The position numbers were made by a program, and so were the translations under genes. From Pristiophorus japonicus (taxonomy: Eukaryota), in assembly GCF_044704955.1 (NCBI RefSeq), contig NC_091989.1:54188001-54252000 (forward strand): a stretch of DNA of 64,000 bases, read 5' to 3'. Of this stretch, positions 18,770 through 64,000 are shown one piece after another (the first letter of the stretch is position 1; each line of letters starts with the position of its first letter). Below the pieces are notes generated by a model. The model was not told the origin of the DNA. It ran no database searches and saw only the letters and a program-made list of their open reading frames with translations.

Positions 18770-19492
18770 CAGCGGGACGTGGGGGTACTTGTGCATGGAA
18801 CACAAAAGGATAGTATGCAGGTACAGCAAGTGATCAGGAAGGCCAATGGTATCTTGGCCTTTATTGCAAAGGGGGTGGAGTATAAAAGCAGAGAAGTCTT
18901 ACCACAGCTATATAAGGTATTGGTGAGGCTACACCTGGAATACTGCGTGCAGTTTTGGTTTCCATATTTACAAAAGGATATACTTGTTTTGGAGGCATTT
19001 CAGAGAAGGTTCACTAGGTTTATTCCAGGATTGAGGGGGTTGACTTATGAGGCAAGGTTGAGTAGGTTGGGCCTCTACTCATTGGAATTCAGAAGAATGA
19101 GAGGTGATCTTATCGAAACGTATAAGTTTATGAGGGGGCTTGACAAGGTGGATGCAGAGAGGATGTTTCTACTGATGGGGCAGACTAGAACTAGAGGGCA
19201 CAATCTTAGAATAAGGGGCCGCCCATTTAAAACAGAGATGAGGAAAAATTTATTCTCTCAGAAATTGTAAATCTGTGGAATTCGCTGCCTCAGAGAGCTG
19301 TGGAAGCTGGGACATCAAATAAATTTAAGACAGAAATAGAGAATTTCTTAAACGATAAGGGGATAAGGGGTTATGGGGAGCGAGCGGGGAAGTGGAGCTG
19401 AATTCATGATCAGATCAGCCATGATCTTATTGAATGGTGGAGTAGGCTCGAGGGGCCGTATGGCCTACTCCAATTCCTATTATGTTCTTATG
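18770..19492 (+). mobile_element. CR1 LINE 3' fragment
   Basis: GVLVHGTQK..QVQQVIRKANGILAFIAKGVEYKSREVL...HLEYCVQFW plus 3' UTR and tail. Confidence 0.95.
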
Positions 19493-30155: not shown

Positions 30156-33100
30156 AGGAGGGAAGGGCCTGAGATTAAATGATGATGGGGGAATTATCAG
30201 GCACACTTCTTTTATTAGGAGCAATGATTACATTGGTTTCGATCAATATGAACGGGCTGAGGGTGAAGAAGAAATTGCAGCAGTTGTTATAGTGTTTTAA
30301 AGGCACTGACTTGTTGTGTCTGCAAGAAGCCTTTGGGATGAGGATATCCTAGAAAGAGTTTGGAAGGTTTTGAAGGGAGAAGTGTTTGCAATTTGCGCAA
30401 ATAATAACCGTCGAGGTGTTGCTGTTTTAGTAAGTTTGTCCATAAAAGAGAGCGTTGCATTGGTGGACAAGGACACTGAGGGGAGATTTTTACAGCCAAA
30501 GGTGCAAATGGATGAATTGAATTGTGATCTCTTTAATAGCTATGCACAAAATTACTATTGCAAGAGTCGTGAGTTTTTTCAGTGGTTATTCATAGAAGTG
30601 GCAGAGATGGAAAACCCTTGTATAGTGGGGGATTTTAATGTATTTTTATCTCGGATGGACATTTCAGCCCAGATGTCCTTTAAGGATGATAATTCCAGAG
30701 GGATGATTATAAAAATGATGGCAAATTTAAATTTGAGAGACGTATGGAGGGATCGGAACCCCATAAAAAGGGAGTTCTCCAGAAGAGTTGTGTGAGTGAT
30801 GTTTTAAAATAGAGCAGAATAGATTTTGTGTTAATGTGGGAAGGATTAAGTTCTGAGGTGATGGAGATTTATTATAAAAAAGTGTTTCTTAGTGACCACT
30901 CGGCTTTGGTTCTTAAAATTAGGAACAGCAGAGTTAAGATCGGTCCAGGGGTATGGATTTTAAACAATCAGTACCTGAAAGAAATTGCTTTTAAAGAAGT
31001 GATTTTAAATATAATAAAGAATGCGTGGAAGGAACCTTTATTCTTGAAAGAAAAAAGAGTTTGGTGGGACAATTTCAAATATGGTAAAGGTTTTTTCGGT
31101 ACATTATGAGAAAGAGAAAGCAACAGCTAACTGGCATCAAGAAGAGAATATAAATAGAAGGTTTACAGATATCTCTAAAGCAGTTGATGGAGGGGATAAG
31201 GGAGCAGAGACTAAGTGGAAGGTTTTAAAAGAAGAGTGGGAATTATTGCCAGCTGAAAAATGCAAGGGGCCATTCTCCGTGCAGAGTCTAAAGATGCATT
31301 GGAGGGAGAAAGATGCACTCGATATTTTCCAGAACAAGAGAAGTTGCGACAAAGTTATCATTAATTGGATAGTTGAAGGTTGGGGAAAAGATCATTAATG
31401 AAAGTGGGGAGATTATGGAGGCGGCTAGTAGCTTTTATCAAGAGTTATATACAAAAGAAGACATTTGCAAATTGGCACTGAAGAAGGTTAGTGTTTTTAT
31501 TGAAGAGGGTTTAAAGGAGGATGAGAGAAGCAAGTGTGACAAAGAAATAGGATTAGTGGAAATAAAAGTAGCAGTAAGTGGAATGAAGGGGGAAAAAGCT
31601 CAAGGTCCAATGGACTAAGTGCAGAATTTCATAAAGAATTTTTAGAGATTTTGTCCATTGGTCTTAGAGGTTTTTAAGGAGATTGAAATCGAGGGAAGCC
31701 TGGCCCCATCTATGAGGAGAGGTATCATAAGCTTAGCTTATAAAAATAAAGGGGATTGAAGGGATGTGAAGAATTAGAGGCCCATCACATTATTAAATTT
31801 AAATTATAAGATCTTAGCGAGGGTTATGGCAAATCGTATGAAGGAGGTGACGCCACAGATAGTTTCGCCCTCACAGTCCTATGGAGTCATTTATGGCTGG
31901 GACATTGTTGACTGTGGTCTCAATCTGAGATGCAAAGAACTCATGGAAGAGAGTGGGAGGGAAGTTTATGTGCTAAAGATGGATCAAGAGAAAGCCATTG
32001 ATAGAGTCTCTCATTAGTTTTTATTGATGGTTTTGGAAGCATTTGGTTTGGAAAAAATTTCATTGAGTGGATAAGGATTTTTTATTCAAACATATTTAGC
32101 TGTGTTAAATGTAATGGTTTTTTATCCAAGTATTTTCCAATACAGAGATCAGTGAGACAGGGCTATTCCCTGTCCCCATTGGTAGCAAAACCATTAGGTT
32201 ACATGATGCAAAAGGAACAAGGCGTAGTCGAGATTGCGGTTCCCAATCGGTGATACACCAATATGCAGATGACATGACCTTCACGTTGAGAGATGGGGAG
32301 TCAGTGAGGAAAACTATGGGAGTAGTGGAGGAGTATTGTAGAGCTTCAGGAGCCAGAGTAAATTATAGTAAGTCCCAATGCCTGGTTGTGGGAAGGACTA
32401 GGGGGGAGGAAAGCCCTTTTAAGGTGGTGGAGGTTTTAGAAGTTCTGGGGATGCATATGGGGTGCAAGAAGGATAGGGATGAAGTGAATCAACTAAATTG
32501 GGAACCAAAGGTTATGAAAATGTAAAAAGATTTTGGGAAGATAGGAAAGAAGATGGTTGAAAGTGCAAGGAAGAGCGACAGTGGTGTCAGCTCTCCTGCT
32601 ATCCAAACTATGGTACTTATTGATGGTGGAGGATATTCCTGAGTGGGAGGAAAAATCCATCCGAGAGGCTTGTGTGAGGTTTTAAGGGAAGGGAAACCAG
32701 CCTTGGTTGCTTACAGTACCATCATTGGACAGCGGAATCAGGGACGACTCAATTTCCCAGATATTTATTTGAAGAAAAAATCCTTTAGAATTAAATGGAT
32801 GAAGAGATTTCTTCAGAAGTCAAATACAAGTTTTTGGAAGAGTTGTTTCCAGCACTTTTTTTAATTAAGTGGGATAGGAGGACAGGGAATATTTTATATG
32901 GATTACAACAATATGTTTTTGAAATCGATTAAACCTCTCCCTAGGTATTATAAAGAGGTTGTAGACACTTGGGCCCAATTTTTTTAAAGTGTGCAGGTTA
33001 TGCCCAAAGGTGCTGAGGAATTTTTAGAACAGCCCTTATTTTTGAACAGGTTGAAGGAGAGCTTTATTTAATCAAGCTTTTAGAAAAACTGGTATTATAT

Positions 33101-42974: not shown

Positions 42975-43919
42975 TGCAAAGTTGAATTGGCACTCTTATT
43001 TCTCAAAACACACAGTCCTTAATTTGCATGTACCAATACAGCACCTGGAAGTTTTGCAGTGAAAAGCTGCACTCACTGATTTCAGCAGGTGATTTATTCA
43101 ACAGTGCTGCTAAAAGCACTCCTTCACACACAAAAATATCACTAAAATTAAATCTCAAGCCTTTCCAGGGGTCCACGAAACAAATCTTCACTTTTCCTCC
43201 AGTCCCTTTAAAAATGGCTGAGTGCTAATGTTTGTTTCACACTGCGTGTGCGCGCACGCTCCAACGCGCACTCGCAGGGTTACCGGCACGACGTTACCTT
43301 ATTTGAATTAGGCCCGCCCCCCACTGCTTAGAGAATCAGCGCGAGTGTCTGGCTCCGCCCCCCGCTGTGATCTGCGCGCCACGCCAAGCTGGTGAAGAGC
43401 TCCGAGAAGCCGAAGAATCTGGCAGTTTTTTACCTGCGCACTTTTGAGCGCGAAAAACGGGCGTCCAGTTCGGGGCTGCGCCATTCTAGGCGCGGCCTGA
43501 AACTTCGGCCCATTGTCACTGCCAGCTAGCAGGAAATACAATTCTTTTGATATGGAGTACATTAGGCTATAGTACATTTACAGAAGCCTTATGCCTTGTA
43601 TTATATTGTGATATAAAACATACAGTATATTATACCCAACATAAAGACCCTCGTGCTGTTGATCATTTGCTGCTCCTTTCGTGCTGACATTTTTGTCGTG
43701 TGTCTCTCATGCATGCGCACATACAACTTTCTTACTGTTGTCTACATTTCTTCTCCCCTAAGTATAGTCAGCTTGAAACATGATGTTGCTTTCCATTCAT
43801 CTCGGACTTTTCACTGTTTAGCAAATCTCTTTCTCTCCTCTTTCTTTGTCCGCTACGTGTCTCTATAAAGCCGTCCCACATATTCCTTTACTGATATAAA
43901 TATGTAGATCAAAGTCCTT

Positions 43920-44517
43920 GGGGCCAAACTTGGTGGACTCACCGCCCACTGCCGCTGAGTTTTCTGGGCGGTCTCCCCTCTGAGTGAGTTTGGTGGAGGC
44001 CTCTCGCCGGCGGGGAAGGAAAACTTCACTCCACTAACGCGCAACTCACCTAAGTGTCCTCCCGCCCGCCGAGCTGCCAGTTAGGTCCAGGCGGGAGTCC
44101 GCTGCAGCAGGGGGAAGTACTGTCGCATGGAGGTAGGTCTAACCTCAACGGTAAGTAAGAAGACCTGCAAAAAAAGGTCAATAAACTTCTTTTTATTTTT
44201 TTTCCAGCGATTCAGGTAGATGAGGTCCCCTGAAGGTTTTCCAATGCGTTTTTTTGAAAATTTAAATTTTTAAATGTTCCCCTCTCCCTGGGCCCGACCC
44301 AATCCTCGGCAGTACTTTGCCGAGGATTGCAAATGCTGCCGAGATTGGGAGGTCCTGCCCGCTGCCGCCCAGTTTCCTGGCGTAAGTCGTTTTTTTGCCG
44401 CCGGGCGGTCATTCCAGGACTTTCCCACAAAAATCCCGCCCAAAGTACCGTCAGGCATCTCAGCGATCCTTTGGGCAGCACTTGGGTGGAACTTAGCTTC
44501 TACCCAAGTTCGGGGCT
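43920..44517. mobile_element. Harbinger-type MITE (internally deleted paralogue at 46628-46900)
   Basis: TIRs GGGGCCAAACTTGG / CCAAGTTCGGGGCT. TSD CTT. Confidence 0.75.
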
Positions 44518-45120
44518 CTTGAGTATAAGGTAGAGCACACAGCAAGAAGAAAGCCAACATGTAATGATGGATACCAAACTGGATGAGGACAGGCTCGTGC
44601 AACACAAACACAGAGTTGAGAGAAATTGTTTGGAGGCTGACGACAAAAGGGAAGTGCAAGAACTCGAGTTGACCATCGTATGGAGTAGAAACAGAAGGTA
44701 AAGAGAAAGCTGGCACCCTGTGCCTGTTCTACGCTCTGGAAACTGAACAGGAAGTCTTCACCTGCCACCATTTTGGCAAATGTGGAGTAGGGGGGTGGGA
44801 GGAGGGTGATGACGAGAGAAAAGAGAGTAGATGGGGGGAGGTGTTACATAAAATGGCAATGGGATAAGAGTGGTTCCGAATGGAGAAAATGCCCAGGAGG
44901 AGGCTGTGGAAACATTGTGGTGGCTGGTTGGGGAAAGAGAGAGCGGGGTGAGAGAGAGAGTGGGGAATGAGAGAAAAATAACAAAACAAAGGCAGTGATT
45001 CTCCTTACCTCGCCGTGTCCGTGGCGGGCGATGTCGGTGGCTGGTCCCGTGTGTCCAGTATTAATTCAATATAAGTGCACTCTACCAGGAAATAAATGAT
45101 CAAAGTTCACTTTTTACTCT

Positions 45121-46036: not shown

Positions 46037-47499
46037 TTACTCTGAATATTGTGCACTCTTTTCCCAATTGGTAAGATTGATGCTCTGTCAACAATCTCAA
46101 ACTCAAATCATGCCAAGAACAACTTACTGGCCAGGAGACTGATGACAGAATGTTGGGGATGTTTCCTGATTCATTATGCATGTATTTTCCAGTATTTACC
46201 TTCCGAAAAATAGTTAAGATCATTGTCACTGCCACCTAGCAGGAAATACACTTTTTTTGATATGGAGTACATTAGGCTATAGTACATTTACAGAAGCATT
46301 ATGCCTTATAATATATTTTGATATAAAACATACAGTATATTATACCCAACATAAAGACCCTCGTGCTGTTGATCATTTGCTGCTCCTTTCGTGCTGACAT
46401 TTTTGTCGTGTGTCTCTCATGCATGTGCACATACAACTTTCTTACTGTTGTCTACATTTCTACTCCCCTAAGTATAGTCAGCTTTAAACATGATGTTGCT
46501 TTCCATTCATCTCGGACTTTTTGCCCTATTTAGCAAATCTCTTTCCTCTTTGTCTGTCTTCCATTTGTCTCTATAAAGCCGTCCCACATATTCCTTTACT
46601 GATATAAATATGTAGATCAAAGACCTTGGGGCCGAACTTGGTGGACTCACCGCCCACTGCCGCCGAGTTTTCTGGGCCCGACCCAATCCTCGGCGGTACT
46701 TTGCCGAGGATTGCAAATGCTGCCGAGATTGGGAGGTCCCACCCGCTGCCGCCCAGTTTCCTGGCGTAAGTCATTTTTTTGCTGCCGGGAGGTCATTCCA
46801 GGACTTTCCCACGAAACTCCCGCCCAAAGTACCGTCAGGCATCTCAGCGATCCTTTGGGCAGCACTTGGGTGGAACTTAGCTTCTACCCAAGTTCGGGGC
46901 TCTTGAGTATAAGGTAGAGCACACAGCAAGAAGAAAGCCAACATGTAATGATGGATACCAAACTGGATGAGGACAGGCTCGTTCAACACAAACACAGAGT
47001 TGAGAGAAATTGTTTGGAGGCTGACGACAAAAGGGAAGTGCAAGAACTCGAGTTGACCATCGTATGAAGTAGAAACAGAAGGTAAAGAAAAAGCTGGCAC
47101 CCTGTGCCTGTTCTACGCTCTGGAAACTGAACAGGAAGTCTTCACCTGCCACCATTTTGGCAAGTGTGGAGTGGAGGGGGGGAAGAGGGAGGTGACAGGA
47201 GAAAAGAGAGCAGATGGGGGAGGTGTTATATAGAATGGCAAAGGGATAAGAGTGGTTATGAATGGAGAAAATGCCCAGGAGGAGGCTGTGGAAACATTGT
47301 GGTTGTGGGTTGCGGAGAGAGAGAGCGGAGAGAGAGAGCGGGAAGAGAGGAATGAAAGAAGAGAGGCGAGAGATAGGGGAAAGAGAGAAAAATAACAAAA
47401 CAAAGGCAGCGATTTTCCTTACCTCGCAGGGTCCGTGGCGGGCGATGTCAGTGTCGGGCCCTAACACCACTGCTGGCCCCACCCCGCTCTCTTAAATGA

Positions 47500-49291: not shown

Positions 49292-50014
49292 TAAGAACAT
49301 AATAAGAACATAAGAATTAGGAACAGGAGTAGGCCATCTAGTCCCTCGAGCCTGCTCTGCCATTCAATAAGATCATGGCTGATCTGGCCGTGGACTCAGC
49401 TCCACTTACCCGCCTTCTCCCCGTAACCCTTAATTCCCTTATTGGTTAAAAATCTATCTATCTGTGACTTGAATACATTCAATGAGCTAGCCTCAACTGC
49501 TTCCTTGGGCAGAGAATTCCACAGATTCACAACCCTCTGGGAGAAGAAATTCCTTCTCAACTCGGTTTTAAATTAGCTCTCCCGTATTTTGAGGCTGTGT
49601 CCCCTAGTTCTAGTCTCCCCTACCAGTGGATACAACCTCTCTGCCTCTATCTTGTCTATCCCTTTCATGATTTTAAATGTTTCTATAAGATCACCCCTCA
49701 TCCTTCTGAACTCCAACGAGTAAAGACCCAGTCTACTCAATCTATCATCATAAGGTAACCCCCTCATCTCCGGAATCAGCCTAGTGAATCGTCTCTGTAC
49801 CCCGTCCAAAGCCAGTATATCCTTCCTTAAGTAAGGTGACCAAAACTGCACGCAGTACTCCAGGTGCGGCCTTACCAATACCCTATACAGTTGCAGCAGG
49901 ACCTCCCTGCTTTTGTACTCCATCCCTCTCGCAATGAAGGCCAACATTCCATTCGCCTTCCTGATTACCTGCTGCACCTGCAAACTAACTTTTTGGGATT
50001 CATGCACAAGGACC
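49292..50014 (-). mobile_element. CR1 LINE 3' part, interrupted at the GVLVH motif by the Tx1 array
   Basis: VLVHESQKVSLQVQQVIRKANGMLAFIARG...HLEYCVQFWSP with a (TTATGTTC)n tail at ~49292-49315. Confidence 0.95.
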
Positions 50015-50094
50015 TTGTAAATGTCTGGTGTGTCACCCAGGTCGGGTGGCACGATTTAATGTTTTATGTTTTTGCAGGTAGACTCTAAAAGAGT
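50015..50094 (+). mobile_element. 5'-truncated (80 bp) Tx1 family B copy
   Basis: Matches the 3' end of the full copy (57160-57238). Flanked by TTCATGCACAAGGACC on both sides. Confidence 0.85.
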
Positions 50095-51026
50095 TTCATG
50101 CACAAGGACCAATTGTGGAGCAGTGGAGGCGTGTCCTGCTCAGTAGGAGCTGAGCTGCAGAGAGAGGAGCAGCTATCAACCTGTGCTCCTGCCTGGAGAG
50201 CCCTGAGATCAGCCCAGGAAGAGCAGGAAGGAAGGGGCTTCACCACCAACTTTCGCCCAGAGGGAGAGGAGGAAGCAGAAAACTTTTAAACAACATTTTA
50301 CCATTCTGCAAAGAGTTGGAGAGAGGGGGAAAGACCAACAAACATCCAGTGTGGAAGGAGGGAGACTCTACTATTTCTACAGGTGGGTGTATTGGTGCAG
50401 TCCCAAAAAGACTTTGTTGAATCGGTGGGGGGAGGAAAGAAGACCTCTGAGGGCCGGAACATCGCGGGGGGTGTGTGTGTGTGGAAGTGTGTGTGGGGGC
50501 CTTGCTACAACTAGGCCCCACACACAATTGAACCCACCCCCCCAATTGTCTAGCCTGGGATAGCTGGAGCTACCAGGCTCAAGAATTTCATCACCTAATT
50601 AAACATCGTTGGGAGTGTGTGCCTGGTTGGCTCTAGCTGCCCCAGGTGAAGACATCTTCTCCCCTCACCTGAAGACCATCCCAAAGACTGTGTTTGTGTT
50701 TTTGCCATCTGGGGATTGCACCCACCCACAGCTGCGAGGGGAGACCTGACCTCGCAGTTCCCCCCCCCCCTTCCCACCCCCCTCTCTCTTTCTCTGTTAT
50801 TCTCTGTTTCTCCCCTCTCTCTCTGAGACCCCTTCCTCCTAAAGTAAAAAAAAAGATAAAACAATTAAGACAACTGAGCAGAGGGAGCAAGGCCCCTCCC
50901 CAATTGCCAACTAGGGGAGAGGTGCCTCGTTAAGAGCTCCTCTGCTCAGTCAAATCAAACGAGGCCAATCAAGACCATTAAGGCCTGTGACTTTGGGGTG
51001 GGTGTAGCCCTTAAAGGGACCCCGTG

Positions 51027-53113
51027 ATGGCGACCCCATCCACGCCGGTGGCAGGGCCAGCAAGAACATATGCGCAGGTGGCAACCGCTTCCACGGCACC
51101 TCCTGTGCCACCTGCTGCCCTGCCACCCTTATTACTAAAAAACACGGGGTCAAGAGCTACACTCACCCCACAATGACCATCGAGGAGTGCGTGCGGGCGA
51201 TGGCTGGGGTAGTCGGCCCCTCGGCCATTGTCGCAGCCTCCAAGATGTCTGGGAAGGCCATGTTCTTCCTGGGGTCGGAGCGGGCGGTGTCCCTGGCCCT
51301 CGAAAAGGGGCTCACGGTGGGCGGGACGTTCCTGCCGGTGGACCCTCTCGAGGCCACCGCGCAGAGGGTCATCATATCGAACGTCCCGCCCTTTGTTCCC
51401 GCTGAGCTCCTCCTCCCTCACCTACACCAACTGGAGGAGGTAAGGTCGGGGATCAACCCCATACCGCTTGGCCTCCGGGAGAACAGCCTGCGCCACGTGT
51501 TCTCCTTCCGCCGCCAGCTCTTTGTCCGGCTGGCGGGGGAGGAGACGACAGAGGGTTATTTTAATGTGGTGCACGAGGGGACTGCCTACCGCGTCTTTTG
51601 GACGTCGGACGGCGTGCGGTGCCATGCCTGCAGGGAGGTGGGGCACGTTCGCAAGAACTGCCCCGCCTCCAAGGCCGCCAAACCACCGAAGGCGGCCAAG
51701 GCTGGCGCCGCCGCCACCCCTCCCCCTAGATGCGTCCGCGTGCCGGGAGCCGTAGGTGCGCGAGCATCGCCGGGGGCCGATGCTTTGACGGCCTCTGGCG
51801 GGGGGGAGGGATTGCGTCCGACCAGAAAGAAGGCGCGGAAGAAGGCAAAACATCCAGAGGCGGATCCCCTCAGTGCGCCAGAAAATATGACCACCGCGCT
51901 CAGCCCAACCCCGTCACCGGCGAGCGCGGAGTGCCCTGAGCCCGTGCCTGAGCGCTTGACCAATATCGCAGAGGGGCCCGGGCGCGGGCAAGAAAAGGAA
52001 AAGGGGGGGGCGGAGCGGGAGGCCTCGGCAGACATGGAGGTCTCCCTGCCTTCGCGCACCCCCAGGAACAAAAAGAGGCACCGCCCCAATGAGGCGGAGG
52101 GGGAACAACATCCCTCCGCGGAGGAGGCGGTGCCCGCCGCGTGTCCCGCGTCCCCCACCAGCGCCCCCAAATTGCGCTGCAGGCGCGAGGAGTCTGTCCC
52201 CGGGGAGGGTGAGACAGTCGAGGCTGCCCAGCCGCTGCCTCCTGGGGAGGGCGTGGAAGATCTGCCTGTCGTGGGGGGCGTGGGGCCGGCGGAAGAATGC
52301 GTAGCCGCCGGGTCGAGCATCCCGGGGACTGAGGCGGGCGGGGCCGAAAAGGCCGAACCTGAGCCCGCCCAGCCAATACCCAACTTCCCCCGGGATTTGC
52401 TCGACTCGGCAGAAACTGAAAATTTTAACATACATCCACACGCTGGGCCGGGGGTTGGCGGCGGGGAGGGGGAAGAACAACAACTCTCGCCCCCTACTTT
52501 GGAGCTGAGGGACTTGGTGGACCTGGAGAATTTTCTAAACCAGGTCTCTCCGTGTTCCCCGGCTCCTGGGGCGGAGGAGGAACCCCTTCCGTTGTCGCTT
52601 CCCGACCCAGCACCAATTTTAAAAGAGCCCAGTGGGGACTCCTCTGCCGACGATCCTGGGGGTGGGATCGGGGCAGAGCCAGGGCCAGATGGAGCGGCCG
52701 GGCCATTTGCCGTACCTCGTGCGGTCGACGGGCCGGCTGCTAGCGGCGACCTCCCGGAGGGGGACGGGGACTCGGTGGAGGACGCGGGTGAAGATCTCGA
52801 GTCCATCGCCAGTGAGGCGGTGGATCTGCTCGCGGCCGCCACTGAGACCCTCCTCATTCCCGCAGAGGAACTCCGGGACTTTTTGGTCCAGTGCCGGGGT
52901 CGCCGCGACCAAGCCCGTCTGGCCCTGGAAAGATGGTCCGAGCCGGGGCTGCTCGTCGCGTCCGTCCGCGCCGCCGCTAAAACCATGGCCGCAGGCGGGC
53001 CCTTGTCAAAGGCTCAAGGCCTTGAGCTGCGCCGACTCAAAAAGTTCCTCGCTGGGCTGCTGAAGGAGTGGAGGTCAACAAACGACTCCACTCCCCCCCC
53101 CACAATAGGTTAA
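51027..53113 (+). pseudogene. Tx1-B ORF1 copy 1 (small deletion near 51130; open from 51173)
   Basis: RVIISNVPPFVP, VFSFRRQ, knuckle CHACREVGHVRKNC. Comparison with copy 2 shows the frameshift. Confidence 0.9.
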
Positions 53114-53139
53114 GGTAGAGGTTGCACTATGCTCTAGTC

Positions 53140-56100
53140 ATGAAGATAACCATAGCCAGCCTCAACATCAACGGCGGCAGAGGGGCACGCCATAGATTTG
53201 ACAATTTTTCGCTCCTGCGGGAGGGGAAATATGCGGTGTGCTTCCTGCAAGAAACTCACACCATTCCGGGAGACGAAGCCACGTGGCTCCTGGAATGGCA
53301 AGGAGAGGTCCGCATGAGCCACCTCACCGCCATTTCTAGTGGGGTGGCCATCTTGCTGGGCCCGCATTTTCAGCCGGAGATCTTGGGGGTCGAGGAGCCC
53401 ATGCCAGGCCGCTTGCTGCACGTAACGGTTCGCCTGGGGGACGTGCCGCTCCATCTCGTGAACGTGTACGCCCCTCAGCCTCGTCCGCAGCAAACGCGCT
53501 TCTTTGAAGAGGTGTCCGCTCTTCTTGGCTCTGTCGACGTCGGCGACTGCATTGTCCTCGGGGGGGATTTTAACTGCACCCTCGAGGCGAGGGACCGCTC
53601 CGGTGCCCTGCAGTGCATTACGGCGATGGAGAAGTTGAGGGACCTGGTCGGGTCCTTCGACTTGGTGGGCGTCTGGCGAAATCTCCACCCCGACTCCAGC
53701 GCCTTTACTTGGGTGAGGCCTGGAGTAGGATGGTCCAGAGTCGACCGCCTTTACGTGTCTCGGGCGTACGTTTCCTGCGTCCCGGCGGCCTCCATGTGGC
53801 CGGTGCCGTGTTCGGACCACCACCTGGTGTGGGCGGAGCTCGCTTCGCTCCGCGCGAGGACGGGGTCCGCGTACTGGCACTTTAACAACCAGCTGCTGGA
53901 GGACGTGCGGTTCCAGGACTCGTTCCGTCGATTCTGGGCCGACTGGAGAAGGAAGCAGGGGGGCTTCCCCTCCTTGAGGCTATGGTGGGACGTGGGCAAG
54001 GCTCACGTCTGCGTCTTCTGTCAACAGTACGCGAGGGGGTCGACCAAGAGGCGGGCGGCCAGGGTCGGGCGCCTAGAAAAAGAGGTGCTCGACCTGGAAT
54101 CCCGTCTCGGTCAAGTCGTCCAGGACCCGGCCCTGCGGACGGTGTACGAAGCGAAGAAGGCCGCGCTGAAGGACCTGCAGCTCGTCGGGTCCCGAGGCGC
54201 GTTCGTGAGGTCGCGGATCCGGTTCATGCGGGACCTGGACCGCGGCTCCCCCTTCTTCTACTCGCTGGAAAAAAGGCAGAGTGTCCGTAAGCAGCTCTTG
54301 ACGCTGCTGGCCGACGACGGCTCTCTCGTCTCGAATCCGGAGGGCGTCAACAACAGGGCCCGTGAATATTACGGGGCTCTGTTCTCTCCGGATCCGTCCA
54401 GCGAGGAAGCGCGTAGAGTTTTGTGGGAGGACCTGCCAAAGGTCAACCCGGAGGGCGCCGAAAATCTGGAAGCTCCGCTAAGCCTGGCGGAGCTGACCGG
54501 TGCCCTCGACCGGCTCTCGAGGGGAAAATCCCCGGGGCTGGACGGGCTGACCGTGGAGTTCCACAGGGCGTTCTGGGACGTCCTGGGGGGCGACTACGCG
54601 CGGGTCCTGGGGGAAAGTCTGGCGACCGGGGAGATGCCCCTCTCTTGGCGTAGGGCAGTCATCGTCCTGCTGCCTAAGAAGGGCGATCTCCGCCTCCTTA
54701 AGAACTGGCGCCCGGTCTCCCTCCTCAGCACGGACTACAAAATTTTTGCCAGGGCGATGTCTGCTCGCCTTGGTGCCGTGCTGGACCACATGATCCACCC
54801 CGACCAGTCCTACACGGTCCCGGGCCGGACAATCCACGATAACATCCATCTGGTCCGGGACCTCATCCATTGTTCCCAGGAGGCTGGTCTGTCGGTCGCC
54901 TTCCTATCCCTCGACCAAGAGAAGGCATTCGACAGGGTGGATCACGACTATCTGCTCGGAACTCTGCGCGCTTTCGGGTTCGGGACGCATTTCGTCGCCC
55001 GGATCCGACTTTTGTACGCCGCCGCGGAGTGTCTGATTAAGGTTAACGGGTCCTTGATGGCGCCCCTTCGCTTTAGGAGAGGGGTGCGCCAGGGATGCCC
55101 CATGTCCGGCCAGTTATACGCCGTTTGCGTGGAGCCTTTCCTGCGCCTCTTGCGGACGAGGTTGACGGGACTGGCTCTGCAAGGGCCGGGCGTGGAGGTC
55201 GTCCTCTCGGCTTACGCCGATGACGTGCTCCTCGCGGTAGAGGATCCCGCTGACCTGCGGAGGATGCGTGAGTGCCAGGAGATTTACTCGGCCGCGTCCT
55301 CCGCCAGGATCAACTGGGAGAAATGTTCCGGACTCCTGGTGGGTCAGTGGCAGGTGGACTCCCTGCCGGAGGAGCTCAGGCCTTTTGTCTGGAGCACGAC
55401 CCATCTCCTCTATCTGGGAGTCTACCTTAGCCCCGACGAGGGAGCCTGGCCGGCGAACTGGCAGGAGCTGGAGGCCAAGGTCGCCGCTCGCCTAGGGTGC
55501 TGGACAGGACTGCTCCGAGTGCTGTCCTACAGGGGTCGAGTGCTAGTCATAAACCAGCTGGTGGCCGCAATGCTGTGGTACCGGCTGGTCACTTTGACCC
55601 CTACCCCTGCGTTCAGAGGAAGCTGGTGGACTTCTTCTGAAACAACAGGAAGCACTGGGTCTCTGCTGCGGTCTTGAGTCTCCCGCTTGAGGAGGGCGGT
55701 CAGTCGTTGGTGTGCGTCAGCGCCCAGCTCGCGACTTTCCATCTTCAGACCCTGCAGAGATACCTTTACGTTGAGCCCCCTCCTAGGTGGTGTGCTCTGG
55801 CGAGGTATTTCTTCCGCCAGCAGCGCGACCTCAATTATGACACGCAGCTCCTGTTTGTGAACTTGGGGGGTGCCAGGACCGCCCTCCGGGAGCTGCCTGT
55901 CTTTTACAGGGAACTCATCAGGGTCTGGAACAAAGTCTCCACCAAGCGCAGCTCTCCGCCGGCTGGAGTGGCGGCCGTCCTGCAGGAGCCGCTGCTCGGG
56001 AATCCGTACCTCCACGACCGAGGTTTTATGTGGCGGTCGGAAGAGAGGGCTGTGGCTGGTGAGGTGACCAGGGTCAGGGACCTGCTCGATGGCGGAGGAG

Positions 56101-57025
56101 CGGGCTGGATGGCGCCAGACACGCTGGCGCAGCGCCTAAATTCTGCCAACGTCCGCCACGCGGCCAATGCCATCGAGTCGCTAAAAACAGCTCTGGGCCC
56201 TGACTCCGTTAGGTGGATCGAGGAGGCTCAAGCACGTGGGGAGATCCCGTCCGAACTGACCCCCGTCCGGACGGAATTCCTCATCGGCGCCAAACCCCGG
56301 AACCTCCCTCGGGGGCCGGCGCCTCACAACTTGAGCCGCCTCGGGGAAATCCCCTCCGTGCCTTTCAGTTCCGCGCGGAGGGGTTTCCTGTACGGGCTGC
56401 TCCTGCACACTCTCAACTTTGCCATCCTCGCCGGCCGTCCGAACACGCCATGGCGTACCATCTTGCCGTCCGGAGGAGGCGGGGGTCCCCGATGGAGGGC
56501 ACTCTACGCAGGGGTCCTCCCACTATTCATCGGGGACTTGGCATGGAGGGTCGTGCACGGAGCAGTGCCGTGCAATAAATTTTTAAGCCGGTTCACAGAC
56601 TCCCAGGCCGCCTGCAATTTCTGCGGTCTGGAGGAGTCCGTGTTCCATGTTTTTATTGAGTGCACGAGGTTGCAGCCCCTGTTCCATTATTTGAAGGGGC
56701 TGCTCCTGAAATTCTGGCTGCACTTCAGTCCCACTCTCCTGATATTGGGCACCCTGTGCGGAGGGGAGCGGGTAGGTCCGAAGGCCTCCTCGTAGGACTG
56801 CTTCTGGGCACGGCCAAGGGTGCCATCAGCCGGTCCAGGCAGCAGGCGGTCGAGGGGGTCGTTCAACCTGACTGCCTGCCTCTCTTCCGCTCTTACATCC
56901 GGTCCAGGGTGTCCTTGGAGATGGAGCACGCGGTGTCCACCGGTACGCTCGCGGCCTTCCGCAAGAGGTGGGCACCGGAGGGACTGGAGTGCATCATCAC
57001 GCCCGGCAACCAAATTTTAATTTGA
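53140..57025 (+). pseudogene. Tx1-B ORF2 copy 1 (APE, RT, Zn), frameshifts near 55612 and 56747
   Basis: IASLNING, LQETH, GDFN, SDHH, KSPGLDG, DQEKAFDRV, RQGCP, YADD, CNFCGLEESVFHVFIEC. Confidence 0.95.
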
Positions 57026-58174
57026 TTTTACGTTTTAAAGTTTATTTTATTTTAATTGCCGGTGCTTTTAGTGTCCCCCTCTCCTTTTATAGGGGGCACT
57101 GGAAAAAGGAAAAAATTTGATTTTAGTGTCCAAAAAAAAACCAAAAAAAAAAAATGGCCTTGTAAATGTCTGGTGTGTCATCCAGGTCGGGTGGCACGGA
57201 TACATGTTTTATGTTTTGCAGGTAGACTCTAAAAGAGTTTCATGCACAAGGACCAATTGTGGAGCAGTGGAGGCGTGTCCTGCTCAGTTGGAGCTGTGAG
57301 CAGTGAGGAGAGCAGCTATCAACCTTAGCTCCTGCCTGGAGTGAGCCCTGAGACCAGCCGAGAAAGAGAAGGAAGGAAGGGGCTTCACCACCAACTTTCA
57401 CCCAGAGGGAGAGGAGGAGAAAAGAAAACTTTTACTCACTTTTACCATTTCTACAAGGAGTTTGAGAGAGGGGGAAAGACCAAAACAACATCCAGTGTGG
57501 AAGGAGGGAGACTCTACTATTTCTACAGGTGGGTGTGGGTGCATTTCCCAAGAGACTTTGTTGTATCGGTGGGGGGAGGAAAGAAGACCACTGAGGGCCG
57601 GAACATCGCGGGGGGTGTGTGTGTGTGGAAGTGTGTGGGGGGGCCTTGCTACAACTAGACCCCACACACAACTGACCCCCCCCCCCAATTGCCTAGCCTG
57701 GGATAGCTGGAGCTACCAGGCTGAAGATTTCTTTAATCACCCACTGAACATCGTTAGGAGTGTGTGCCTGGTGGCTCTGGCTGCCCCAGGTGAAGACGTC
57801 TTCTCCCCCCACCTGAAGACCAATCCAAAGACTGTGTTTTTGTGTTTTGCCATCTGGGGAGTGCACCCACCCACAGCTGCGAGGAGAGACTTGCCCTCGC
57901 AGTTCCCCCCCCCCACCTTCCCACCCCCTCTCTCTTTCTCCGTTACTCTCTGTTTCTCCCCTCTCTCTCTGAGACCCCTTCCTCCTAAATTTAAAAAAAA
58001 CAACAAAACAATTGAGACAACTGAGCAGAGGGAGCAAGGCCCCTCCCCAATTGCCAACTAGGGGAGAGGTGCCTCGTTAAGAGCTCCTCTGCTCAGTCTT
58101 TTAGATAAGAGGCCAATTAAGACCATTAAGGCCTGTGACTTTGGGGTGGGTGTAGCCCTTAAAGGGACCCCGTG

Positions 58175-60274
58175 ATGGCGACCCCATCCACGCCGGTGGC
58201 AGGGCCAGCGAAGACATATGCGCAGGTGGCAACCGCTTCCACGGCACCTCCTGCGCCACCCGCTGCCCTGCCACCATTCAGATTAATTACCAGAAAACAC
58301 GGGGTCAAGAGCTACACTCACCCCACAATGAGCATTGAGGAGTGCGTGCGGGCGATGGCTGGGGTAGTCGGCCCCTCGGCCATTGTCGCGGCCTCCAAGA
58401 TGTCTGGGAAGGCTGCTTTCTTCCTGGGGTCGGAGCGGGCGGTGTCCCTGGCCCTTGAAAAGGGGCTCACGGTGGGCGGGACGTTCCTGCCGGTGGACCC
58501 TCTCGAGGCCACCGCGCAGAGGGTCATCGTTTCAAACGTCCCGCCCTTTGTTCCCGCTGAGCTCCTCCTCCCTCACCTACACCAACTGGGGGAGGTAAGG
58601 TCAGGGATCAACCCCATACCGCTCGGCCTCAGGGAGAACAGCCTGCGCCACGTGTTCTCCTTCCGCCGCCAGCTCTTTGTCCGGCTGGCGCGGGAGGAGA
58701 CGACGGAGGGGAACTTTAATGTGGTGCACGAGGGGACTGCCTACCGCGTCTTTTGGACGTCGGACGGCGTGCGGTGCCATGCCTGCAGGGAGGTGGGGCA
58801 CGTTCGCAAGAACTGCCCCGCCTCCAAGGCCGCCAAACCACCGAAGGCGGCCAAGGCTGGCGCCGCCGCCACCCCTCCCCCTAGTTGCGTCCGCGTGCCG
58901 GGAGCCGTAGGTGCGCGGGCATCGTCGGAGGCCTTTGTTTTCAGGGCCTCCGGCGGGGGGGAGGGAGAGCGTCCGAACGGAAAGAAGGCGCAGAACAAGG
59001 AGAAACATCTAGAGGCGGGTCCCCTCAGTGCGACAGAAAGATTGACCACCGCGCTCGGCCCAACCCAGCCACCGGCGAGCGCGGGGTGCCCTGAGCCCGT
59101 GCCCGAGCCCTTGAACAACACCGCAGAGGGGCCCGGGCGCGGGCAAGAAAAGGAAAAGGGGGGGGCGGAGCGGGAGGCCTCGGCAGACATGGAGGTCTCC
59201 CTGCCTCAGCGCACCTCCAGCAACAAAAGGAGGCGCCGCTCCGTTGAGGCGGAGGGGGAACAACATCCCTCCGCGGAGGAGTCGGTGCCCGCCGCGTGTC
59301 CCGCGTCCCCCACCAGCGCCCCCAAGCAGCGCCGTAGGCGCGAGGAGTCTTTCCCCGGGGAGGGTGAGGCAGTCGAGGCTGCCCAGCCTCTGCCTCCCGG
59401 GGATGGCGTGGAAGATCTGCCTGTCGTGGGGGGCGTGGGGACCGCGGAGGAATGCATTGCCGCCGGGCCGGGCGACCCGGGGACTGAGGCGGGCGGGGCC
59501 GAAAAGGTCGAACCTGAGCCCGCCCAGCCAATACCCAACTTCCCCCGGGAGTCGCTCGACCCGGCAGAAACCAAAACAAATGTTTTTTATGACACTGTAG
59601 ATGCTGGGCCGGGGGGTGGCAGCGGGGAGGGGGAGGAACACCCACCCTCGCCCCTTGCTTTGGAGCTGGAGCACTTGGGGAGCCTGGGGATTTCCTATGG
59701 CCGGGTCACTTCTTGTTCCCTGGATCCTGGGGCGGAGGGGGAACCCCTTTCGCTGTCATTTCCCGACCCAGCACCATTTTTAAAAGAGTCCAGTGGGGAC
59801 TCCTCTGCTGACGATCCTGGGGGTGGGATCGGGGCAGAGCCAGGGCCGGTTGGAGCGGCCGGGTCATTTGCCGTACCTTGTGCGGTCGATGGGCCGGCTG
59901 CTGGCGGCCACCTCCCGGAGGAGGACGGGGACTCGGTGGGGGACGCGGGTGAAAACCTAGAGACCACCGCCAGCGAGGCAGTGGATCTGCTCGCGGCCGC
60001 CGCCGAGACCATCCTCATTCCTGCAAAGGAACTCCGGGACTTTTTAGCCCAGAGCCGGGGTCGCTGCAACCAAGCCCGACTGGCCCTGGAAAAATGGTCC
60101 GAGCCAGAGCTGATCAAGGGGTCCGTCCGCGCCGCCGTTAAAACCTTGGCCGCGGGCGGGCCCTTGACAAAGGCGCAACACCTTGAGCTGTGCGAGCTCG
60201 AGGGACTCCTCGCTGGGCTGCGGAGGGAGCGGAGTTCAACAAAAGACTCCACTCCCTCCCCCACAATAGGTTAA
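58175..60274 (+). CDS. Tx1-B ORF1 copy 2, intact (~699 aa)
   Basis: Uninterrupted ORF MATPSTPVAG... with a CCHC knuckle. Confidence 0.9.
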   Translation: MATPSTPVAGPAKTYAQVATASTAPPAPPAALPPFRLITRKHGVKSYTHPTMSIEECVRAMAGVVGPSAIVAASKMSGKAAFFLGSERAVSLALEKGLTVGGTFLPVDPLEATAQRVIVSNVPPFVPAELLLPHLHQLGEVRSGINPIPLGLRENSLRHVFSFRRQLFVRLAREETTEGNFNVVHEGTAYRVFWTSDGVRCHACREVGHVRKNCPASKAAKPPKAAKAGAAATPPPSCVRVPGAVGARASSEAFVFRASGGGEGERPNGKKAQNKEKHLEAGPLSATERLTTALGPTQPPASAGCPEPVPEPLNNTAEGPGRGQEKEKGGAEREASADMEVSLPQRTSSNKRRRRSVEAEGEQHPSAEESVPAACPASPTSAPKQRRRREESFPGEGEAVEAAQPLPPGDGVEDLPVVGGVGTAEECIAAGPGDPGTEAGGAEKVEPEPAQPIPNFPRESLDPAETKTNVFYDTVDAGPGGGSGEGEEHPPSPLALELEHLGSLGISYGRVTSCSLDPGAEGEPLSLSFPDPAPFLKESSGDSSADDPGGGIGAEPGPVGAAGSFAVPCAVDGPAAGGHLPEEDGDSVGDAGENLETTASEAVDLLAAAAETILIPAKELRDFLAQSRGRCNQARLALEKWSEPELIKGSVRAAVKTLAAGGPLTKAQHLELCELEGLLAGLRRERSSTKDSTPSPTIG

Positions 60275-60300
60275 GGTAGAGGTTGCACTATGCTTTTGCC

Positions 60301-63300
60301 ATGAAGATAACCATAGCCAGCCTCAACATCAACGGCGGCAGAGGGGCACGCCGTAGATTTGACAATTTTTCGCTCCTGCGGGAGGAGAAATATGCGGTGT
60401 GCTTCCTGCAAGAAACCCACACCGTTCCGGGAGACGAAGCCACGTGGCTCCTGGAATGGCAAGGAGAGGTCCGCATGAGCCACCTCACCGCCATTTCTAG
60501 TGGGGTGGCCATCTTGCTGGGCCCGCATTTTCAGCCGGAGATCTTGGGGGTCGAGGAGCCCGTGCCAGGCCGCTTGCTGCACGTAACGGTTCGCCTGGGG
60601 GACGTGCCGCTCCATCTCGTGGACGTGTACGCCCCTCAGCCCGGCCCGCAGCAAACACGCTTCTTTGAAGAGGTGTCCGCTCTTCTTGGCTCCGTCGACG
60701 TCGGCGACTGCATTGTCCTCGGGGGGGATTTTAACTGCACCCTCAAGGCGAGGGACCGCTCCGATGCCCCGCAGTGCATGACGGCGATGGAGAAGTTGAG
60801 GGACCTGGTCGGGTCCTTCAACTTGGTGACGTCTGGCGAAATCTCCACCCCGACTCCAGCGCCTTTACTTGGGTGAGGCCTGGAGTAGGATGGTCTAGAG
60901 TCGACCGCCTTTACGTGTCTCGGGCGTACGTTTCCTGCGTCCCGGCGGCCTCCATGCGGCCGGTGCCGTGTTCGGACCACCACCTGGTGTGGGCGGAGCT
61001 CGCTTCGCTCCGTGCGAGGACGGGGTCCGCGTACTGGCACTTTAACAACCGGCTGCTGGAGGACGTGCGGTTCCAGGACTCGTTCCGTCGATTCTGGTCC
61101 GACTGGAGAAGGAAGCAGGGGCGCTTCCCCTCCTTGAGGCTATGGTGGGACGTGGGCAAGGCTCACGTCTGCGTCTTCTGTCAAGAGTACGCGAGGGGGT
61201 CGACCAAGAGGCGGGCGGCCAGAGTCGGGCGCCTAGAAAAAGAGGTGCTCGACCTGGAATCCCGTCTCGGTCAAGTCGTCCAGGACCCGGCCCTGCGGAC
61301 GGTGTACGAAGCGAAGAAGGCTGCGCTGAAGGACCTGCAGCTCGTCGGGTCCCGAGGCGCGTTCGTGAGGTCGCGGATCCGGTTCCTGCGGGATCTGGAC
61401 CGCGGCTCCCCCTTCTTCTACTCGCTGGAAAAAAGGCAGAGTGTCCGTAAGCAGCTCTTGACGCTGCTGGCCGACGACGGCTCTCTTGTCTCGGATCCGG
61501 AGGGCGTCAACAACAGGGCCCGTGAATATTACGGGGCTCTGTTCTCTCCGGATCCGTCCAGCGAGGAAGCGCGTAGAGTTTTGTGGGAGGACCTGCCGAA
61601 GGTCAGCCCGGAGGGCGCCGAAAATCTGGAAGCTCCGCTAAGCCTGGCGGAGCTGACCGGTGCCCTCGACCGGCTCTCGAGGGGAAAATCCCCGGGGCTG
61701 GATGGGCTGACCGTGGAGTTCCACAGGGCGTTCTGGGACGTCCTGGGTTGCGACAACGCGCGGGTCCTGGGGGAAAGTCTGGCGACCGGGGAGATGCTCC
61801 TCTCTTGGCACAGGGCAGTCATCGTCCTGCTGCCTAAGCAGGACGATCTCCGCCTCCTTAAGAACTGGCGCCCGGTCTCCCTCCTCAGCACGGACTACAA
61901 CATCTTTGCCAGGGCGATGTCTGCTCGCCTTGGTGCCGTGCTGGACCACATGATCCACCCCAACCAGTCATACACGGTCCCGGGCCGGACAATCCACGAC
62001 AACATCCATCTGGTCCGGGACCTCATCCATTGTTCCCAGGAGGCTGGTCTGTCGGTCGCCTTCCTATCCCTCGACCAAGAGAAGGCGTTCGACAGGGTGG
62101 ATCACGACTATCTGTTCGGAACTCTGCGCGCTTTCGGGTTCGGGACGCATTTCGTCGCCCGGATCCGACTTTTGTACGCCGCCGCGGAGTGTCTGATTAA
62201 GGTTAACGGGTCCTTGACGGCGCCCCTTCGCTTTAGGAGAGGGGTGCGCCAGGGATGCCCCATGTCCGGCCAGTTATACGCCGTTTGCGTGGAGCCTTTC
62301 CTGCGCCTCTTGCGGACGAGGTTGACGGGACTGGCTCTGCAAGGGCCGGGCGTGGAGGTCGTCCTCTCGGCTTACGCCGATGACGTGCTCCTCGCGGTAG
62401 AGGATCCCGCTGACCTGCGGAGGATGCGAGAGTGCCAGGAGATTTACTCGGCCGCGTCCTCCGCCAGGATCAACTGGGAGAAATGTTCCGGACTCCTGGT
62501 GGGTCAGTGGCGGGTGGACTCCCTGCCGGAGGAGCTCAGGCCTTTTGCCTGGAGCACGACCCATCTCCTGTATCTGGGAGTCTACCTTAGCCCCGACGAG
62601 GGAGCCTGGCCGGCGAACTGGCAGGAGCTGGAGGCCAAGGTCGCCGCTCGCCTAGGGCGCTGGACAGGACTGCTCCGAGTGCTGTCCTACAGGGGTCAAG
62701 CGCTAGTCATAAACCAGCTGGTGGCCGCAATGTTGTGGTACCGGCTGGTCACTTTGACCCCTCCCCCTGCGTTTGTCGCCAAGATACAGAAGAAGCTGGT
62801 GGACTTCTGGAACAACAGGAAGCACTGGGTCTCTGCTGCGGTCTTGAGTCTCCCGCTTGAGGAGGGCAGTCAGTCGTTGGTGTGCGTCAGCGCCCAGCTC
62901 GTGACTTTCCGTCTTCAGACCCTGCAGAGATACCTTTACGTCGAGCCCCCTCCTAGGTGATGTGCTTTGGCGAGGTATTTCTTCCGCCAGCAGCGCGACC
63001 TCAATTATGACACGCAGCTCCTGTTTGTGAACTTGGGGGGTGCCAGGACCGCCCTCCGGGAGCTGCCTGTCTTTTACAGGGAACTCATCAGGGTCTGGAA
63101 CAAAGTCTCCACCAAGCGCAGCTCTCCGCCGACTGGAGTGGCGGCCGTCCTGCAGGAACCGCTGCTCGGGAATCCGTACCTCCACGGCCGAGGTTTTATG
63201 TGGCGGTCGGAAGAGAGGGCTGTGGCTGGTGAGTTGACCAGGGTCAGGGACCTGCTCGATGGCGGAGGAGCGGGCTGGATGGCGCCAGACACGCTGACGC

Positions 63301-64000
63301 GGCACCTAAATTCTGCCAACGTCCGCCACGCGGCCGATGCCATCGAGTCGCTAAAAACAGCTCTGGGCCCTGACTCCGTTAGGTGCATCGAGGAGGCTCA
63401 AGCACGTGGGGAGATCCCGTCCGAACTGACCCCCGTCCGGACGGAATTCCTCATCGGCGCCAAACCCCGGAGCCTCCCTCGGGGGCCGGCGCCTCACAAC
63501 TTGAGCCACCTCGGGGAAATCCCCTCCGTGCCTTTCAGTTCCGCGCGGAGGGGTTTCCTGTACGGGCTGCTCCTGCACACCCTCAACTTTGCCATCCTCG
63601 CCGGCCGTCCGGACACGCCATGGCGTACCATCTTGCCGTCCGGAGGAGGCGGGGGTCCCCGATGGAGGGCACTCTACGCAGGGGTCCTCCCACTATTCAT
63701 CGGGGACTTGGCCTGGAGGGTGGTGCACGGAGCAGTGCCGTGCAACAAATTTTTAAGCCGGTTCACGGACTCCCAGGCCGCCTGCAATTTCTGCGGTCTG
63801 GAAGAGTCCGTGTTCCATGTTTTTACGGAATGCACAAGGTTGCAGCCCCTGTTTTATTATTTGAAGGGGCTGCTCCTGAAATTCTGGCTGCACTTCAGTC
63901 CCACTCTCCTGATCTTTGGGCACCCTGTGCGGAGGGGAGCGGGTAGTTCCGAAGGCCTCCTCGTAGGACTGCTCCTGGGCACGGCCAAGGGTGCCATCAG
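60301..64000 (+). pseudogene. Tx1-B ORF2 copy 2 (frameshift ~60828, stop 62958-62960)
   Basis: Same APE and RT motifs as copy 1, with different lesions. Confidence 0.95.

Follow-up and report, generated by a model that had tools for sequence, protein, structure and literature searches.

A Tx1-clade retrotransposon at one site in the ORF2 of a CR1-like LINE in Pristiophorus japonicus

Stacked Tx1 copies inside a CR1 LINE

We analysed a 64,000-nucleotide stretch of the Pristiophorus japonicus genome (assembly GCF_044704955.1, contig NC_091989.1, positions 54,188,001 to 54,252,000 of the forward strand; hereafter the window, in its own numbering), in which copies of a Tx1-clade long interspersed nuclear element (LINE) follow one another inside a CR1-like LINE. 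A sequence of 16 bases occurs there exactly at 49999-50014, 50095-50110 and 57239-57254, as listed by an earlier reading made without database searches (the sequence-only reading). With up to three mismatches allowed, the 64-kb window holds four matches against 0.78 expected, the fourth being situated in another CR1 copy at 18784. The exact repeats separate an 80-bp piece, a 7,128-bp piece and a second long copy, 94% identical to the former in self-comparison, in accordance with the truncated, full and second long copy described earlier. The left arm of the host LINE (49299-50014, minus strand) comprises the end of its open reading frame 2 (ORF2) and its 3' tail, as determined by translation and self-comparison. 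On the minus strand this arm reads as ORF2 of a CR1-like LINE from VLVHE on, and the first 16-mer is indeed native CR1 sequence, antisense to this motif. In the 10 kb after the window, the last copy ends 391 bases beyond it (G000:C13:54252391) and is followed by a fourth repeat. The 5' arm of the host resumes in register 392 bases past the window (QRDLG-VLVHE) and continues through the reverse transcriptase (RT) and endonuclease motifs, so CR1 does run on behind the array, a point that the sequence-only reading had left to be looked up.

Elements and repeats of the array all lie on the plus strand. The left copy of a 14-bp target-site duplication (49999-50012) is followed by copy A, the 3' end of a 5'-truncated element with 80 bp and two shared junction bases (50013-50094). 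The CC that closes the 16-mer is mostly junction homology rather than duplicated target. Another 14-bp repeat (50095-50108) stands between A and copy B, a full-length Tx1-clade LINE of ~ 7.1 kb (50109-57238), and a third one (57239-57252) between B and copy C, also full length, which occupies 57253-64000 and ends outside the window as described. Copy B ends without poly(A) in a small terminal hairpin (57225-57238). Folding of the six commonest variants showed a constant stem and a loop of varying length, with weak energies and no compensatory changes. In the left arm, CACCTG at 49975-49980 (plus strand), 24 bases upstream of the insertion point, is the likely recognition signal, as suggested by its enrichment at off-target sites and in filled older CR1 copies. 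On the CR1 coding strand it corresponds to the codons Gln-Val.

Copy B has ORF1 at 51027-53113, with a CX2CX4HX4C knuckle and homologues named TX1 ORF1, and ORF2 at 53140-57022, in which Pfam recognizes the endonuclease and RT regions, accompanied by a C-terminal zinc motif. ORF1 is frameshifted by a 7-bp deletion near 51128, and ORF2 by losses of 13 bp near 55614 and 1 bp near 56744. In copy C, ORF1 (58175-60274) is intact and encodes 699 amino acids, while ORF2 (from 60301) is broken by a 1-bp deletion near 60828 and a stop at 62958. The two long copies are thus damaged at different places, as had been noticed before. They differ by 352 substitutions spread over the whole length, which indicates independent insertions. 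Copy C would be the oldest of the three and copy A the youngest.

According to its sequence features, the inserted element is classified as a Tx1-clade non-LTR (long terminal repeat) retrotransposon that appears to have been active recently. Its ORF1 carries a zinc knuckle and its ORF2 an apurinic endonuclease (APE), RT and a C-terminal zinc motif; the ORF2 Pfam assignments are Exo_endo_phos and RVT_1, and the closest solved structures are those of L1 ORF2p. ORF2 taken from a naturally intact copy (L093) has 49% identity to that of Xenopus Tx1L over 1,297 amino acids (63% in the RT). The ORF1 search gave seven matches among 7,425 candidates, one being ‘Transposon TX1 uncharacterized 82 kDa protein ORF 1’ (36%). 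Close relatives were found in a stingray, sturgeon and turtles. In an RT tree of 21 rows the element is sister to the stingray sequence (94/99) and outside the teleost-type group (100/100), while the fork joining it to Tx1L and the turtle rows is open in this set, which contains no named Keno, Dewa or Tx1-Mar. Placement in the Tx1 clade, put forward from the letters alone, is upheld by these comparisons, with that fork left open. Both ORFs are intact in four of eight full-length units fetched from two arrays, hence the family is young.

The RT of the host LINE shares about 45-54% identity with many bird and turtle RTs, none labelled CR1 by its source, and 27% with the Tx1 RT studied here. We named the host after bird LINEs, which are CR1 elements. 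Its tail has two to three copies of an 8-base-type repeat. The 3' tail of the CR1 clade is reported to be a short tandem repeat with an octamer motif, in a passage of PMC4316615 that does not give the octamer letters for comparison.

Site preference and a probable signal upstream of the duplication

Flanks were tabulated for the two element ends. Of the 30 best 3'-end matches, 25 belong to the CR1 site or an array, and five rows (four loci) are elsewhere. One exact 3'-end variant occurs 1,298 times genome-wide and is followed by the exact site in 871 cases (67%). Among its first 100 copies on contig C1, 79 adjoin the exact site and 10 are off target, the other 11 belonging to variant sites or arrays; all 21 non-exact copies were read, and CR1 arms of exact ones were checked within the first 30 copies, 27 of which lie in an array or at the CR1 site. 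At the opposite end, 59 of 60 sampled full-length 5' ends, many of which are array neighbours and hence not independent, have the site directly upstream with at most one mismatch, and the remaining one has a CR1 flank with a deletion. One 5'-end pattern was counted 2,230 times; full-length 5' ends are preceded by another copy 1,900 times and by CR1 directly 256 times, a ratio not fully explained. Tx1 copies therefore sit antisense at one position in CR1 ORF2 at thousands of loci, and the flanks are not random, as expected from the targeting of one CR1 site that had been proposed for the window. Counted by exact patterns across the genome, right junctions are filled in 6,233 cases, and the commonest flank is found at 24,343 empty sites; with 45,216 sites in total, 14-20% of exact sites are filled. 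The site is ~ 700 bases from the CR1 3' end, within the part kept by truncated CR1 copies. In PMC4494074, a Tx1 family is regarded as target-specific when more than 20% of its flanks belong to one repeat type; the corresponding values here are 67% exact genome-wide and 90 of 100 on C1. Truncation at the 5' end and target-site duplication, features of target-specific Tx1 families, are both present. Sequence-specific nicking of the CR1 target by the element endonuclease is likely.

The recognised signal appears to be located upstream of the duplicated bases. The hexamer CA[C/G][C/G]TG starts between -23 and -26 at 12 of 16 off-target sites (one of the 12 read by eye), against a background of 0.15% per position (p about 3e-24), and at the CR1 site CACCTG is at -24. 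The 16 sites were defined by their duplication, so that two ends without duplication and two sister-family sites without the hexamer are outside this set; inclusion of the L241 site, with a flank starting in TG, gives 12 of 17. Older CR1 copies offer a second comparison, CACCTG being at -24 in 15 of 18 filled and in two of 27 empty sites (p 2.6e-7). In 18 of the empty ones TACCTG stands in place of the hexamer, a difference that is silent on the CR1 coding strand. Four further filled older sites have CACCTG in two cases, lack it in one, and include one not scored. Rare filling of the older CR1 subfamily would be explained by the hexamer being mostly missing there, and a single silent base change in CR1 is predicted to make a copy largely immune. 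Two empty CR1 sites of the older type are in the window itself, at 18784-18799 and about 45200; in the latter the upstream signal begins with T in place of C.

According to a different explanation, the duplicated 14-16 bp would themselves be the recognition site, perhaps together with pairing of read-through RNA with the primer strand, and the hexamer would be secondary. Most off-target sites still begin with TTC, CR1 is favoured well beyond what the hexamer predicts, and folding of the 3' hairpin is slightly better when read-through bases are added. However, off-target duplications resemble each other only in their first 3-4 bases, while 12 of 16 have the hexamer at a fixed distance, and among older CR1 copies with a near-identical site, mostly those carrying the hexamer are filled. 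We consider this explanation improbable. RNA-guided pairing of the element 3' end with the upstream target was also examined and rejected: a complement of 10 bases exists, but two of 77 control CR1 windows reach 10-11 bases, and the match is not significant.

The protein that reads the hexamer could also belong to the host. CA[C/G][C/G]TG fits the E-box pattern, and an E-box-binding protein of the basic helix-loop-helix type might tether the retrotransposon, with a weak preference of the endonuclease. The presence of the hexamer in both orientations at off-target sites speaks in favour of such a factor. Against it, the distance between hexamer and cut varies little (-23 to -26), as it would if one protein spanned the two. 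A title cited in PMC8869645 moreover describes the Tx1L endonuclease as target-specific by itself. Tethering by a host protein is accordingly unlikely in our estimate, and reading of the hexamer by the element is preferred.

Junctions, array growth and chimeric insertions

Left junctions of truncated copies (n = 31) match the target over 14 bases in 15 cases, 15 bases in five, 13 in three, 16 in one and fewer than 12 in seven. With the mode at 14 bp, a 16-bp duplication is rejected, and the only 16-base match is the one in the window. Copies outside CR1 are flanked by repeats of local sequence, 11-15 bp long, and the 16-mer is therefore not a terminal repeat of truncated copies, the alternative that could have overturned the sequence-only reading. 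A variant of the site with 43 junctions genome-wide, 30 of which were sampled, was informative about the origin of the repeats. The local base is repeated by all 16 truncated neighbours with a visible left site, whereas the standard base is found at all six intact full-length 5' junctions (p 1.3e-5); these six come from 10 loci fetched, and the other four (deleted, truncated and internal junctions) were left out. At full-length copies, the last bases of the repeat at least are thus supplied by the element. The claim that each insertion regenerates the target as a duplication stands in so far as local DNA is duplicated; the rule is 14 bp instead of 16, and the 5' junction of full-length copies is partly element-borne.

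An odd flank upstream, in which a stop interrupts the CR1 frame, was detected in tracts of 15-45 bases in both young and old CR1 backgrounds. It is present at 10 of 25 loci with a short copy followed by a full-length one and at none of 28 with truncated copies only (p 1.7e-4); it was also absent from five empty sites and from 11 loci where a full-length copy adjoins CR1 directly. For this count 12 rows that could not be resolved were dropped, and the loci are not a random sample. The odd flank and the element-borne junction suggest a target-derived RNA leader, by analogy with R2, for which the parts of PMC6895275 consulted describe RNAs that keep upstream target sequence and cDNA that can consequently pair with the target. 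Read-through from arrays may be the source of the upstream pieces. Their lengths, from 12 to over 1,300 bases, do not support a promoter-tag model with a fixed short upstream piece. At four loci (L085, L087, L122 and L169) and at one array end on C3, units of only 11-12 bases, each flanked by a separate duplication, stop within the 3' hairpin, where RT may stall.

Adjacent units of arrays often share the 5' breakpoint and differ in 3' subtype, also at off-target sites. For example, one pair of neighbours is identical over 5,743 bp and has 21 changes in the last 1,454, and another is identical over 2,122 bp, with 20 changes in the last 241. Such pairs are what a cDNA completed on its neighbour would leave behind. 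A pair in the C1c array is a clear product of unequal crossover. In one array an internal short copy has the site variant on both sides, which fits re-insertion at the left junction; the signal is retained on the left arm, and this junction is therefore predicted to stay a target. Arrays appear to grow by copying of neighbours and by unequal crossover besides independent insertions. Stacking had been attributed to repeated insertion, and it was confirmed, though not as a result of independent insertions alone.

Two arrays illustrate the range of sizes. A segment of about 52 kb on C1 (G000:C1:345048959-345101000; L213-L215, L226-L228) holds seven full-length copies and a truncated one inside an older CR1 copy. 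At a non-CR1 site on C4 (G000:C4:117663750-117675290; L104, L105), 27 units of ~ 420 bp have one common breakpoint, mixed 3' subtypes and higher-order periodicity. This block is a satellite-like array seeded by the Tx1 element studied here.

The site also receives small RNA sequences. The first 30 matches to the 3' end of 5S rRNA on C1-C5 represent 29 loci, 22 of them at the CR1 site, three on the tail of a sister Tx1 and four without a link to either. At the 22 loci the 5S sequence is in sense orientation and mostly full length, the junctions vary, element tails are as short as 11-15 bases, and a few loci share a very short tail; Rfam confirms the 5S and tRNA parts. Variable junctions characterize these insertions as one-off chimeras, and a partner 5S SINE (short interspersed nuclear element) family of SINE3 type, with many copies of one head-tail junction, was rejected since junctions differ among the 22 loci. 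On an 11-12-base element tail in a CR1 site on C2 (L150, G000:C2:57363781-57366807, at 1099-1525), three tRNA copies, one with an insert of intron length, and a 5S sequence are chained head to tail in sense orientation. This looks like serial template jumping on unprocessed transcripts of RNA polymerase III.

Further observations concern the 5S sequences. In L153, L158 and L170 they are joined to the sister Tx1 tail (about 73-80% alike), with non-CR1 flanks starting in TGT(A/G)G and 13-15-bp duplications in two; L158 lies inside an antisense Tx1 5' region, and L153 has a U2-like match at 2453-2686. A sequence of ~ 60 bases between 5S and element tail is common to L146 and L148, just 3' of the 5S, and is shorter in L164. 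Rfam gives it no name, and it is possibly an unannotated small RNA. The 5S variant of chimera type forms a tandem array with a 989-bp period on C8 (G000:C8, from 220497216).

The chimeras also bear on an explanation without any targeting, in which CR1 retrotransposition or segmental duplication multiplied a single CR1 that carried an old Tx1 insertion, and unequal crossover alone produced the arrays. Higher-order repeats and the crossover product in some arrays (C3, C4, C1c) agree with it. Hitchhiking of this kind is excluded as a general explanation: between two intact CR1 arms, copies are 5'-truncated in their own orientation at many different positions, they occupy CR1s only 67-80% like that of the window with each site variant duplicated, and 5S and tRNA chimeras that are unique end at the same base. 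Amplification without targeting is consequently very hard to sustain.

We regard as probable an overall account in which the Tx1 LINE targets CR1 ORF2 through the upstream hexamer, accompanied by array growth and template jumps. The ORF2 protein would read CA[C/G][C/G]TG about 24 bases upstream, and the CR1 coding strand would be nicked at the T(TC) that starts the site, where reverse transcription is primed. The second strand would then be cut 14 bases on, giving a duplication of the observed length. The signal would stay on the left arm, where arrays would then gain their new copies. Full-length RNAs probably begin upstream of the element and include target sequence; finished cDNA with such a leader could anneal to the target and overwrite the local flank. 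The synthesis of a new cDNA often seems to be completed on the neighbour already in place, with further lengthening of arrays by unequal crossover. Finally, the 5S rRNA and tRNA sequences at the CR1 site would probably result from end-to-end jumps of RT onto such transcripts.

Several observations weigh against this account. The signal is absent at four of 16 off-target and three of 18 filled older sites. From the background rate we estimate that tens of thousands of non-CR1 places would have the two-part signal by chance alone, yet off-target copies make up only ~ 10%, so a further factor must favour CR1. The share of exact sites is 67% genome-wide and 79% on C1, and the on-target share may be lower elsewhere. 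Units 1-2 of C21, units 1-2 of C1c and the C1b array lack the pattern of identical 5' and different 3' parts, and growth on the left side is a prediction. The odd flank never abuts a full-length copy directly (0/11), which a leader model alone does not explain, among loci that are not random. Where the strands are nicked and what reads the upstream hexamer, an ORF2 domain or a host E-box-binding factor, are themselves inferred.

Comparison with known target-specific elements

Insertion of Tx1 elements into other transposons and stacking at a regenerated site are known. Tx1L of Xenopus laevis (UniRef ‘Transposon TX1 uncharacterized 149 kDa protein’, P0017) has two ORFs and an APE endonuclease, like the element studied here, and according to the parts of PMC4494074 consulted it inserts specifically into another transposon. 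Its target is Tx1D, a non-autonomous piggyBac DNA transposon, in contrast to the coding region of a LINE in our case. Crocodilian Tx1-Mar, Tx1-8_Crp, Tx1-4_AMi and Tx1-9_AMi prefer Mariner, LTR elements and Harbinger (Kojima 2015, PMC4494074, as far as consulted), and their partner small-RNA elements use the same site, often in tandem. The preference for transposons is thus shared with crocodilian families, while no LINE target is named in the main text of that article as seen in part, and 5S/tRNA chimeras of P. japonicus have variable junctions, unlike one SINE family. Flanks consist of LINE ORF2 rather than U2 small nuclear RNA (snRNA), Mariner or microsatellite, the target types of Keno, Tx1-Mar, Kibi and Koshi.

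Similarities extend to other clades. In the sections of PMC3414825 consulted, R1 is described in tandem arrays with 14-bp duplication spacers, and R2 as jumping in vivo to tRNA and snRNA. Array spacing, jumps and retained target RNA are alike, but R1 and R2 target the rRNA gene array and not a dispersed LINE, and R2 has a restriction-like endonuclease whereas our element has APE. Human L1 insertions with small RNAs (5S rRNA, tRNA) fused 5' of the LINE 3' end are single events (bioRxiv 10.1101/2025.02.02.635956, seen in part), in which 5S and tRNA are mostly truncated and antisense; in P. japonicus they are sense, mostly full length and sometimes chained, as in the locus with three tRNAs and 5S.

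A CR1-targeting Tx1 was not found in the literature searched, which agrees with the sequence-only reading, Repbase and subscription journals being outside that search; the passages of PMC8869645, PMC4640811, PMC3747384 and PMC4316615 consulted name no LINE target. In metagenomes, a search with the element/CR1 junction gave three matches, all by chance and with no element or CR1 around them. Among sequencing runs, no RNA data set was listed as containing it. Contigs of three other organisms cover parts of the element and of CR1, and none bridges the junction with 31 bases on each side.

The element was earlier regarded as a parasite of the CR1 coding region. Insertion into ORF2 is confirmed, while the CR1 site resembles a safe harbour, and nothing points to a cost for active CR1. 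A dispersed LINE would in this way accommodate copies in a substantial part of its exact sites, at least 2,000 full-length 7-kb copies adding to the 5.9-Gb genome. How APE-type retrotransposons gain or change site specificity is an open question, which also matters for gene insertion, where site-specific elements are of interest. In the present case the genome by itself is enough to define the signal, through thousands of dated insertions together with natural variants of the target and sites off target, and the presence of intact copies makes the rule accessible to an oligonucleotide nicking assay. More tentatively, as a possibility that we take seriously without leaning towards it, one LINE would home into the RT-coding region of another by means of a distant hexamer, one synonymous CR1 base would part susceptible from largely immune subfamilies, and the target-derived leader of the full-length RNA could write the signal into flanks that lacked it. 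If true, this would represent a directly testable example of coevolution between transposons and a novel way for APE-type retrotransposons to become site-specific.

Two other features of the window lie apart from the array. An old fragment at 31591-32050 belongs to another L1/Tx1-like RT, 42-48% identical to the Tx1 ORF2 studied here. In addition, two neighbouring direct-repeat blocks, 90-94% identical, occupy 43511-45047 and 46221-47461.

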